Below, piece by piece: positions 61,153-63,483 of a DNA stretch of 64,000 nt (its first letter is position 1; each line of letters begins with the position of its first letter). The translations under genes were made by a program, and so were the position numbers. The stretch lies in assembly GCF_058153355.1 (NCBI RefSeq), contig NZ_CM177019.1; one strand, given 5' to 3'. The notes under the pieces were generated by a model. That model saw nothing but the letters and a program-made list of their open reading frames with translations, made no database searches and was not told the origin of the DNA.

Positions 61153-62189
61153 AACTGGCACCGAACGTAAAAAAACAGCCACGCGGAATAAAACACGCTC
61201 AAACCGAAGTGATCATTTTTGCGGGTAGTGATGCCTGGGCACACGCGAAACAGTGGCAGGAACATGACGCGCGTACAGCCGGAGATAATGAGCCTCCTGT
61301 GTGGCTTGGAGAGCAGCAGCTATCCGAACTGGATAATCTGCAAATTGTGCCGGATGGCAGAAAATCAGCACGCATATACAGAGCCGGACATCTTGAGCCT
61401 GTAATGATCAAGGCGATTGGTCAGAAGCTGGCGGCGGCAGGCGTACAGGATGCAGATTTTTACCCTGAGGGAATGCACGGTCAGAAGGTGGAAAACTGGC
61501 GCGAATATCTGGCCCGTGAGCGCCAGAATCTTTCTGATGGTCTGGTGATTGAGCTTCCGGTAACGCAAAAGGCGCAACTTTCGCAGATGGCGGACAGTGA
61601 GCGCGCGCAGCTGCTTGCCGATCGCTTTGATGGCGTTTGCGTGCATCCTGAAAGTGAAATCGTTCACGTATGGCGCGGCGGGGTATGGTGTCCGGTCAGC
61701 ACAATGGAACTGAGCCGCGAAATGGTGGCGGTTTATTCAGAACACGGGGCCACATTCAGCAAGCGGGCAATTAATAACGCCGTTGAAGCGTTAAAAGTTA
61801 TTGCTGACCCGATGGGCGAGCCGTCCGGCGATTTGTTGCCGTTCGCCAATGGTGCGCTTGACCTGAAAACGGGGGAATTTTCCCCGCACACGCCGGAGAA
61901 CTGGATCACCACGCACAACGGCATTGAGTACAGGGCACCAGCACCAGGGGAGAACATCCGCGATAACGCGCCAAACTTTCATAAATGGCTTGAGCACGCA
62001 GCCGGAAAAGACCCGCACAAGATGATGCGCATATGCGCCGCGCTGTACATGATTATGGCGAACCGCCACGACTGGCAGATGTTTATTGAGGCCACCGGAG
62101 ACGGCGGGAGCGGCAAGAGCACTTTCACGCACATAGCCAGCCTTCTGGCAGGGAAACAGAACACGGTAAGGCAGTATGACTTTCCGTGA
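61149..62189 (+). pseudogene. P4-family primase/helicase (D5_N + SF3 helicase P-loop), 3'-truncated just after Walker A
   Basis: LLPFANGALDL...H..WL.....D.....ATGDGGSGKSTFTHIASLLAGKQNT is the primase-C / D5 N-terminal region followed by GxxxxGKS/T Walker A. A complete protein would carry Walker B and motif C; here the frame ends 8 codons later where IS110-family sequence starts. Confidence 0.7.
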
Positions 62190-63483
62190 GACAGATGCTG
62201 GCCAACGTGGGATATTTAACGCGGGTTAACATCGTTGTCAGAGCCGCATGGGTGAGCTGTTGCTACACCCCGGTATTTCCACCACGGAGGCCAGCATGAA
62301 CAACAATAACACATTGTACGTCGGGTTAGATGTTCACAAAGAATCGATTACTGTCGCTTATGCTATCAATTCAGAACCTGTTGAACTGATGGGTAAAATT
62401 GGCACATCACCTACTGATATTCAGAATCTTTGTAAACGTCTCAGGTCAAAGTCATCGCAGGTCAGTATCGTTTATGAAGCGGGGCCCTGTGGTTATGGAC
62501 TTTATCGTCGGCTGGTGAAATCCGGTTTTGACTGCATGGTCTGCGCCCCCTCACTTATCCCGAAAAAACCGGGGGAGCGGGTTAAAACCGATCGCCGTGA
62601 TGCCATCAGACTTGTGCGTTCACTGCGTGCAGGAGATCTTTCTGCTGTCTACGTACCCGGCATTGAAGATGAGGCATTCCGGGATTTGGCCCGGGCATGG
62701 GCATCTGCCCGCGATGATTTACGGCATGCAAGGCAACGTCTGAAATCGTTTCTTCTGGTTCATGGGGTCCATTATGTCGGGCGAGCAGATTGGGGCCCTG
62801 CACACCGACGCTGGCTCAGCAAATACTCATTCGAAAGTCCCTGGCGACAATTAGCTTTTGACGAACACCGTCGTACAATAGAAGACCGGCAGGCACAATG
62901 TGAACGGCTGGAATCCGCCCTGAAGGAGGCCGTTACCGAATGGAGGCTGTATCCGGTAGTAGAGGCGCTGCAAGCCATGCGAGGGATTCAGTTTATTACT
63001 GCGGTTGGATTAATTTCTGAACTGGGTGATCTGACCCGTTTTGAACATCCACGACAACTGATGTCATGGTTTGGTATCACGCCATCAGAATATTCATCGG
63101 GTGGAAGCAGACATCAGGGCAGCATTACCAAAGCCGGAAACAGCTATGCCAGAAAGCTATTGGTCGAGGCAGCGTGGAGTTACCGTCATCCGGCACGCAT
63201 CAGTCCGGCAATACAAAAAAGGCAGGAAAATTTACCCCGCCCCGTCATTGACAGAGCATGGGATGCTCAACTCAGGCTTTGTAAGAGGTATCGAAAACTT
63301 CAGGCCAAAGGAAAGAATGTCAATATTACAATTGTTGCTGTTGCACGTGAGCTGGCGGGTTTTATCTGGGATATGGGCCGAATAGCAATGTCTGTCGCAC
63401 AACAACCACAATGTCACAAATAAAAAATGAGAATAACCAGTTCCCTGAAGGCGACGTAGCCCGGTACAAGAGTAACCCACGTT
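62165..63483 (+). mobile_element. second IS110-family element (not IS621), boundaries approximate
   Basis: Encodes a 375-aa DEDD recombinase; left boundary inferred from the primase truncation point, right boundary from the onset of the tandem repeat array; no terminal inverted repeats, as is typical for the family. Confidence 0.55.
62296..63423 (+). CDS. IS110-family DEDD recombinase (375 aa)
   Basis: GGAGG RBS 8 nt before MNNNNTLYVGLDVHKESITV (catalytic Asp in GLDVHK). C-terminal HPRQLMSWFGITPSEYSSGGSRHQGSITKAGNSYARKLLVEAAW aligns with the IS621 segment [33 protein letters not shown]. Confidence 0.85.
   Translation: MNNNNTLYVGLDVHKESITVAYAINSEPVELMGKIGTSPTDIQNLCKRLRSKSSQVSIVYEAGPCGYGLYRRLVKSGFDCMVCAPSLIPKKPGERVKTDRRDAIRLVRSLRAGDLSAVYVPGIEDEAFRDLARAWASARDDLRHARQRLKSFLLVHGVHYVGRADWGPAHRRWLSKYSFESPWRQLAFDEHRRTIEDRQAQCERLESALKEAVTEWRLYPVVEALQAMRGIQFITAVGLISELGDLTRFEHPRQLMSWFGITPSEYSSGGSRHQGSITKAGNSYARKLLVEAAWSYRHPARISPAIQKRQENLPRPVIDRAWDAQLRLCKRYRKLQAKGKNVNITIVAVARELAGFIWDMGRIAMSVAQQPQCHK

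Follow-up and report, generated by a model that had tools for sequence, protein, structure and literature searches.

The IS1111-group element ISSso6 in a P4-like primase gene: a predicted guide RNA in its right end and a tandem array of its own terminal 205 bp

Close to the end of a 64,000-bp stretch of DNA (NCBI RefSeq assembly GCF_058153355.1, contig NZ_CM177019.1), which is referred to below as the window and whose first letter is position 1, lies a gene for an IS110-family recombinase that is followed by a tandem array with a period of 205 bp. The locus raises two questions, namely where the guide RNA of this insertion sequence (IS) is encoded, and how the array came to abut the element. 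The IS is ISSso6, a member of the IS1111 group of the IS110 family with a DEDD recombinase, and comparison with related elements shows that a predicted guide RNA of approximately 190 nt is encoded in its 266-bp right end (RE). The array is the terminal 205 bp of ISSso6 itself, repeated head to tail, and appears to represent a previously undescribed variant of this element. The first junction between two units was, with chances slightly better than even, made by the ISSso6 recombinase rather than by replication slippage. Taken together, the identity of the IS, a guide RNA in its RE, an array derived from the IS and a junction made by the recombinase form what we consider, with good confidence, the best explanation of the locus. 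The coordinates of all features are collected in Table 1.

The transposase encoded in the window is identical, at 100% over 375 aa, to the copy of strain VL40 (locus L001; RefSeq WP_001063816.1), which the Prokaryotic Genome Annotation Pipeline assigns to ISSso6 (ISfinder; IS110 family, IS1111 group). It matches the NCBIfam model NF033542 (IS110 family RNA-guided transposase) with 273.9 bits, for a cutoff of 140, and contains the Pfam domains DEDD_Tnp_IS110 (PF01548, E = 2.4e-11) and Transposase_20 (PF02371, E = 8.1e-24). Its GITPSEYSSG segment aligns with the counterpart motif of the IS621 structure 8wt6, and in the protein alignment of its relatives (A1) the columns G260, P263, S268 and G269 of the G-x-x-P-x4-S/T-G motif are invariant. 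The gene is an intact open reading frame (ORF). A previous reading of the locus, made from the sequence only, was right to describe the 375-aa recombinase as a family member different from IS621. This length falls outside the 330-350 aa of the compact IS1111 transposases (PMC11187229), and is the one feature that does not fit. Durrant et al. (2024, Supplementary Table 5) had already placed ISSso6 in the IS1111 group, with a predicted bridge RNA in the RE, so that its general nature has been published in outline; its transposase is also included in the set of Siddiquee et al. (2024; PMC11187229), where, in the parts of that source available to us, it shows 17-25% identity to others in matrix columns whose headers were not visible.

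A protein database search (E <= 1e-20) returned at least 8,000 scored relatives, and among the matches listed many of the closest ones (72-81% identity) come from Burkholderiales; 80 relative loci were taken from GTDB species genomes. Within the clade having at least 60% amino-acid identity, a variable left flank is followed by AG[G/T/A]CAG, by a TATGACT.. repeat and, after approximately 121-128 bp, by the ATG, while on the right side the gene is followed by a non-coding region (NCR) of 260-303 bp, an ..AGTCATA repeat, TCA and again a variable flank. The 14-bp subterminal inverted repeat, whose length falls in the range of about 7-17 bp of the IS1111 group, is kept across this clade, and in contrast to the variable flanks the terminal extensions (AGGCAG on the left, 6 nt when the base shared with the target is counted; TCA on the right) are conserved as well. 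The subterminal inverted repeats, the asymmetric extensions and the downstream NCR are the hallmarks of the IS1111 group, for which subterminal inverted repeats, extensions of 6-7 bp on the left and 3 bp on the right, and a downstream NCR were reported (Siddiquee et al. 2024, PMC11187229).

ISSso6 is present in 599 of 5,426 complete E. coli genomes (megablast), annotated as "IS110-like element ISSso6 family transposase"; full copies start at the equivalent of window position 62165/62166 and span approximately 1,527 bp. These other copies and the inverted repeat pair place the right end of the element at 63689, so that of the limits given in the sequence-only reading (62165-63483) the right one was wrong. 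In the window the IS splits a P4-like primase gene, and its joined flanks, with a single AG, are identical at 180 of 180 positions to the intact primase gene of FDAARGOS_943, which represents the empty site. Because the empty site equals the joined flanks, the net insert is 1,520 bp and no target duplication took place. The bases at 62169 and 63689, both of them A, correspond to one base that is common to the IS ends and the target; at the primase locus this shared base is A (AG in this case). A strict 2-nt AG core was considered and is ruled out by relatives with TCA-A at the right but AG-G at the left junction (hyphens set off the junction or core here and below), while a single shared A fits all junctions in the window and its relatives. 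In VL40 and in the O121 strain 201805972 the primase gene is interrupted at the identical position, and there the IS ends with a single 205-bp unit that is directly followed by AGCGCTGAGATGAC and the remaining part of the primase gene. With the IS extending from 62169 to 63689, the first unit of the array is therefore the IS's own right end. The left end (LE) comprises 127 non-coding bp (62169-62295), close to the estimate of about 125 bp made previously; the 60 bp then given for the downstream side correctly describe the distance from the stop codon to the beginning of the repeats as called by Tandem Repeats Finder (63424-63483), although the true downstream NCR measures 266 bp. The left flank at 62165 reads acGgta in the window, versus acAgta in VL40, in the O121 strain and at the empty site, and the source strain therefore represents a distinct lineage of the same prophage insertion.

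Tandem Repeats Finder delimits 2.5 copies of the 205-bp period with 100% identity, running to the end of the window. The first unit (63484-63688) represents the genuine right end of the IS, the second covers 63689-63893, and the third is cut by the window end; each unit spans from guide 1 (see below) to the IS terminus. The unit-unit junction reads GTCATATC-A-GCGCTTGG, in which the exact IS terminus is joined to the target-core position within guide 1. From the second one onwards, the units lack the 5' strand of the closing stem of the RNA as well as the first two bases of guide 1, and judged by this composition they are unlikely to yield a functional RNA. Every unit has a complete RE terminus with its inverted repeat and -35 sequence, and alternative excision end-points and solo RE modules left behind would therefore be expected. 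Two identical 78-aa ORFs (63558-63794 and 63763-63999) cross the unit boundaries; they exist only through the repetition of the units and are most likely not genes.

The window copy, with at least 2.5 terminal units, differs from most copies of ISSso6, which have one. The unit junction was found in 2 of 108 E. coli records, both of them pINV plasmids (RMDEC332 and RMDEC364), and in 1 of 55 plasmid records; besides the window, the identical junction is thus carried by the pINV plasmids of RMDEC332 and RMDEC364 and by CP091385.1, and it was found in none of the JGI metagenome contigs or IMG/VR. At the pINV locus, where the left flank is identical at 100 of 100 positions, one unit is present in CFSAN029787 and two in RMDEC332 (L003). 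Since unit counts differ at the primase as well as at the pINV locus, the unit number is polymorphic at two separate loci.

The sequence-only reading had pointed to an inverted complementarity between the 60-bp tail of the gene and each repeat unit. This complementarity is real: ccctgaaggcgacgtagc (63444-63461) pairs with gctacgtcgccctcaggg (63609-63626), the latter recurring in each array unit, at 17 of 18 positions, and the single A.C mismatch coincides with a conserved unpaired column of the consensus structure. The proposal that one of these segments is a guide mirroring a target did not hold, as co-variation identifies them as the two sides of the stem that closes the RNA itself; this stem comprises 22 pairs (63438-63460 with 63609-63631). 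The search for folds proposed at the same time was run on both ends. The minimum free energy (MFE) fold of 63421-63692, a segment of 272 nt that includes the RNA core, has a z-score of -4.7, and the structure is conserved: on an alignment of 31 distinct relatives (A2), RNAalifold predicts a consensus of 44 pairs, 16 of which show compensatory double changes. On this structure 98.1% of the alignment cells are paired, compared with 34-40% after sliding the partners by 1-3 columns, and 0 of 500 column shuffles reached the observed covariation. An internal loop is bounded by a helix (CCGC/GCGG) and an inner hairpin; apart from the two strands of this loop, the alignment has no hypervariable blocks. 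At A2 columns 45 and 102 (63481 and 63531), in the helix closing the target-binding loop, ISSso6 has an A-U pair while most relatives have G-C; this compensatory change also creates the sequence ACGTTAG beside guide 1, which resembles guide 2. No match was found in a scan of 58000-64000 against Rfam 15 (E <= 1), leaving this RNA without a curated family. The LE was rejected as the site of the RNA: 62166-62298 (133 nt) has a z-score of -2.9, which is mostly due to a start-codon stem, and shows no guide-like matches. In this LE and 5' untranslated region (62194-62297), the MFE fold pairs AUGCUGGCC with GGCCAGCAU, a stem that would likely mask the region close to the ribosome binding site and the start codon of tnp, blocking translation of read-through transcripts.

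The two hypervariable strands of the loop carry the predicted guides. The one on the 5' strand (guide 1) is complementary to the top strand in the right half of the target, and the one on the 3' strand (guide 2) to the bottom strand in the left half. The correspondence between guides and flanks was evaluated for 23 distinct elements with 20,000 permutations per guide, the guide blocks being taken from alignment columns. The cognate match amounted to 5.4/7 for guide 1 (2.25/7 for non-cognate pairs) and to 3.2/5 for guide 2 (1.46/5), values that were reached by 0 of 20,000 permutations in either case. Individual relatives illustrate this: in L006 guide 2, GAACAAG, equals the flank gaacAAG, whereas guide 1 is CTCCTGTT in L012 and GGTCTGCT in L034, the reverse complements of the flanks aacaggag and agcagacc, respectively. 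When the other copies of ISSso6 were aligned, as the sequence-only reading had suggested, their ends and a common target were defined: nine distinct insertion sites give the target GTA-A-GCG(C/T)TAACGG, with all left flanks ending in GTA. The target of L089, AGCGCTAA, matches guide 1 at 8 of 8 positions, and the primase site matches guide 1 at 7 of 8 and guide 2 at 5 of 7. These comparisons show two predicted guides that jointly direct insertion at about GTA-A-GCGCTAA. The guide pairing with the top strand lies 5' of the one pairing with the bottom strand, which is the order of IS1111-type seekRNAs, reversed in the IS110 type (PMC11187229). The earlier suggestion of an IS1111-type element with its RNA in the right end was thus correct in outline. 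Most ISSso6 insertions are found beside or inside IS66-family sequence (L085-L094; flank GCGTTAACGGAGTGCC, with tnpC fragments annotated). By analogy with ISEc21 and IS3-family elements, the reported precedent for targeting another IS, the natural target of ISSso6 may be a conserved site in another IS.

On the donor side, a conserved hairpin (GCGG..CCGC) is directly followed at its 3' side by AATATCAG, which matches the right terminus of the IS. Those 50%-identical relatives that have an RE ending in CATGAGAG carry CATCAGAG at the equivalent place of the RNA, a co-variation in the expected direction, and the part of the RNA that carries AATATCAG probably belongs to the donor-binding region. 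Donor-binding nucleotides of IS1111 elements are often located in a multiloop (Durrant et al. 2024), with which the layout of the ISSso6 RNA is compatible. The RE is also likely to provide the -35 sequence, TTGACA, of a promoter that would be formed in the excised circle: joining of the ends would bring it to 17 nt from CAGTAT in the LE (62172-62177; a -10 candidate matching the consensus at 3 of 6 positions), from which position it would drive the transposase gene. Such a circle-junction promoter is suggested by the likeness to ISEc11 (PMC11187229); a promoter scan of the LE gave no strong promoter.

In four duplications the junction coincides exactly with the terminus of the IS, namely in the window array, in that on pINV (L003), and in two further cases with other periods. 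In E. coli SCAID WND1-2022 (L095) the right end of ISSso6 is duplicated with a period of 106 bp, and the RE terminus is joined to an internal AATATCA-GCGTG, i.e. to donor-guide-like DNA (AATATCAG); the junction site shares a 10-bp identity, ATATCAGCGT, with the RE and its flank. This 106-bp junction was not evident beyond the SCAID strain, in an output whose format is not decisive. In a Desulfosarcina metagenome-assembled genome (MAG), the right end of a 50%-identical relative (L070) is duplicated with a period of 378 bp and a junction at the exact terminus, TATCA(G). This concerns one of four copies in the MAG; its sisters L065 and L069 carry a single unit each. Another copy of this relative from a Desulfosarcina MAG (L072, around position 2600) shows a gap of approximately 140 columns in its RE NCR, located between GCCGC microhomologies, which is an ordinary slippage-type deletion and contrasts with the junctions at the terminus.

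How did the first duplication arise? The idea put forward in the sequence-only reading, that the 205-bp repeats are a pre-existing genomic family, the preferred target of the IS, which a guide in the 60-bp tail mirrors, could draw on the 17/18 complementarity between the tail and each unit and on the analogy with IS621, which targets REP sequences. We consider it extremely improbable. The empty site is devoid of any such repeat, in VL40 and O121 the orthologous insertion has a single unit that passes directly into the primase gene, ISSso6 copies at unrelated loci all end with the identical 205 bp, the complementary segments co-vary as a stem within one RNA, and the real guides are situated elsewhere and match the flanks. 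What survives of that proposal is that the junction does lie on target-like sequence, which is not a target array but the guide-1 coding DNA inside the IS. It is likewise improbable, if less so, that the multi-unit array is an assembly artefact, a mis-resolved repeat at a locus that truly has one unit. The perfect identity of the units, the single unit in the closest relatives with the same insertion, the fact that the window stops inside the array so that its far side is not visible, and the lack of the junction in JGI metagenome and IMG/VR contigs would all be in line with an artefact; on the other hand, the identical junction is found in the RMDEC332 and RMDEC364 pINV plasmids and in CP091385.1, a 205-bp period is well inside the read length of any platform, and analogous duplications are present in unrelated assemblies.

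The most serious competitor is an origin without the recombinase, in which replication slippage or unequal sister exchange at the short AGCGCT repeat, found in the guide-1 DNA and again in the right flank of the primase target, duplicated the 205 bp and RecA-mediated unequal crossing-over then expanded them; we judge it unlikely, but far from negligible. In the single-unit state a 6-bp direct repeat is found at exactly both endpoints with a spacing of 205, the 106-bp duplication of L095 makes use of a 9-10-bp repeat that is a classic slippage substrate, and the 100% identity of the units is consistent with recent homologous expansion. Direct-repeat pairs at least as long as the pair used were counted at spacings of 50-500 bp (50-600 bp for L070). 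At the primase locus, where the microhomology used is 6 bp, 160 pairs are equal or better within 2 kb around the IS, 11 of them of at least 8 bp; at pINV, where the identical junction occurs next to a flank sharing only AGCG (4 bp), approximately 1,029 pairs are equal or better, and for L070, where a relative with 50% identity was duplicated to its exact terminus with only AG (2 bp) shared, approximately 44,500. The 9-10-bp repeat of L095 is the only such pair in its region. As only this 106-bp case uses the best repeat, microhomology alone does not predict the repeated choice of a pair containing the terminus, and slippage does not predict the repeated use of the IS terminus. An origin through the recombinase is favoured because microhomology leaves this repeated use unexplained and because precedents exist: the transposase of ISPpu9 can join authentic ends to AG sites of an alternative or artificial kind, forms sub-element circles and is associated with tandem ssr9 modules (Pares-Guillen et al. 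2025, PMC12288879), and half-match recombination is described for IS621 (Xie et al. 2026, bioRxiv 10.64898/2026.08.31.748434).

A recombinase origin would make use of a peculiarity of ISSso6. AGCGCT is its own reverse complement, and the guide-1 DNA is hence also a same-orientation copy of the right half of the target (GCGCT, matching at all of the first 5 positions); in front of it stands ACGTTAG, which has 6 of 7 positions in common with guide 2, ACGTAAG. Therefore the IS carries a good pseudo-target 205 bp from its own end. In the proposed mechanism the recombinase would join the RE terminus (..TATC-A) to the guide-1 DNA (..CGTT-A-GCGCT..), and this could follow one of two routes. A circle of the IS could insert at the pseudo-target inside a copy already in place (A-A-B-B), after which a homologous deletion would remove one A to give A-B-B, or the RE junction could undergo a direct half-match exchange with the pseudo-site of a sister copy; subsequent changes in copy number would result from ordinary unequal crossing-over. 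More generally, guide-coding DNA may be a substrate of the element's own recombinase, both guide-1 and donor-guide DNA having been joined to the RE terminus, a tentative generalization to which we give somewhat less than an even chance.

Several observations weigh against the recombinase as the maker of the junction or against the RNA model. The nested A-A junction predicted as an intermediate had a contiguous match in 0 of 5,426 E. coli genomes. The junction at the primase locus is equally explained by its 6-bp AGCGCT microhomology, slippage explains the 106-bp duplication well given that it uses the only 9-10-bp direct repeat of the region, and the internal partner site of L070 matches neither guide in register. 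Gene conversion, or the transposition of an element that already had two units, could connect the arrays on pINV and at the primase locus, which would then not be independent, and the array in the window is known from assembled sequence, not from reads. As for the RNA, its ends and the junction promoter are, for ISSso6, features that we infer, and the LE-side candidate for a donor guide, TACTGC, whose reverse complement is GCAGTA, is conserved and agrees with ISSso6 and with the L065 group, but not with L056.

Table 1. Location of the features of ISSso6, its right-end array and related terminal duplications; positions refer to the window unless another locus is named
Feature	Location	Strand	Evidence or remark
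P4-like primase (D5_N) gene, 5' part, split by the IS	61149-62168	+	Joined flanks restore the reading frame
ISSso6, single-unit extent	62169/62170-63689	+	Net insert 1,520 bp
Left terminal extension AGGCAG (family consensus AG[G/T/A]CAG)	62169-62174	+	Kept in ~35 related elements with differing upstream flanks
Left subterminal inverted repeat TATGACTTTCCGTG	62175-62188	+	Perfect 14-bp pair with 63673-63686
Transposase (recombinase) gene, intact, 375 aa	62296-63423	+	Pfam, NCBIfam, RefSeq identity
Structured core of the predicted seekRNA / bridge RNA	63438-63631	+	~194 nt; fold and covariation
Guide 1 (predicted), TTAGCGCT	63482-63489	+	Reverse complement of core A and 7 nt of right flank
Tandem array of the IS terminal 205 bp	63484-64000	+	Tandem Repeats Finder; second RE terminus at 63878-63894
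Guide 2 (predicted), ACGTAAG	63519-63525	+	Equals last 5 nt of left flank plus AG
Putative donor guide AATATCAG	63577-63584	+	Same sense as RE end ATATC+A+G
TTGACA, likely -35 of circle-junction promoter	63669-63674	+	TTGAC invariant in 35 aligned right ends
Right subterminal inverted repeat CACGGAAAGTCATA	63673-63686	+	Followed by terminal extension TCA, 63687-63689
Duplicated ISSso6 right end, E. coli SCAID WND1-2022	L095 289-510		106 bp x 2
Duplicated right end of a 50%-identical relative, Desulfosarcina MAG	L070 2735-3492		378 bp x 2.0, 100% identical

The neighbourhood of the element contains further mobile DNA. A 523-aa ORF for an IS66-family-type transposase (tnpC-like by its sequence) is located at 58867-60438, approximately 1.7 kb upstream, and the P4-like region is therefore riddled with IS elements; in VL40, IS421 is found instead near the same primase gene. 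Elsewhere, in E. coli EBJ003 (L084, 1501-1564) and the hits H55-H70, the ISSso6 right end is reduced to its last ~60 bp. This stub, present on many E. coli chromosomes, resembles a decayed remnant and has an IS66-family element and a pseudogene of a transposase as neighbours.

To the published outline of ISSso6, the present analysis adds guides, target and RNA architecture for a large, mainly Burkholderiales clade, together with the variant carrying an RE array. If arrays of this kind are made by the recombinase, they would represent natural footprints of off-target or half-match activity on the element's own guide gene, a possible origin of multi-ended IS variants and of hitch-hiking RE modules such as MITEPpu9, and a warning for design, in that palindromic target cores would turn the guide-coding DNA of the donor into a target. 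Taken with the 378-bp case of L070, they would then point to self-directed half-match recombination as a recurrent side reaction of IS1111-type elements, one that would produce multi-RE elements and, potentially, solo RE modules. For annotation, tandem repeats that abut IS110 or IS1111 genes should be compared with the end of the IS itself before they are called new repeats.

Among known systems, ISSso6 resembles in its layout the seekRNA elements ISEc11, ISKpn4 and ISPa11 (PMC11187229), with which it shares a predicted RNA in the downstream NCR, subterminal inverted repeats, the lack of a target duplication, asymmetric extensions, the guide order and, probably, a -35 sequence in the RE for a junction promoter; it differs from them by its transposase (375 aa versus 330-350) and by a left extension of 6 nt that includes the shared A. 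Co-purification of the RNA with the transposase, and its requirement for circle formation and insertion, were established for ISEc11, ISKpn4, ISPa11 and ISEc21, while ISSso6 is known here from its sequence. With IS621 (Durrant 2024; Hiraizumi 2024; PDB 8wt6), ISSso6 has in common the DEDD RuvC-like domain and a C-terminal Tnp domain containing the serine motif G-x-x-P-x4-SG, as well as guides on both strands of a helix-flanked internal loop, which are predicted to read opposite strands in half-sites around a short core. In contrast to IS621, its RNA is encoded in the RE instead of the LE, the core behaves as a single shared A (AG in the window) and not CT, the donor-binding part appears to be located within a multiloop, and the similarity of the proteins is weak (E = 2e-5) and confined to the C-terminal domain.

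Parallels for the array are found in ISPpu9 and MITEPpu9 (PMC12288879), where an authentic end recombines with internal or ectopic AG sites and where some strains have tandem downstream RNA modules. The ISPpu9 module has its own copies of both ends (A'/B' boxes) and consists of a separate small RNA gene that is dispensable for transposition; unlike it, the ISSso6 module is a truncated guide RNA gene plus RE, and the internal partner is guide-coding DNA. For IS621, half-matching bridge RNA substrates were described in vitro, for this element only, and the abstract and outline of that study propose them for excision and off-target insertion and do not mention natural tandem RE arrays (Xie et al. 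2026). Half-matching of this type would account for an RE terminus joined to partly matching internal sites of ISSso6.

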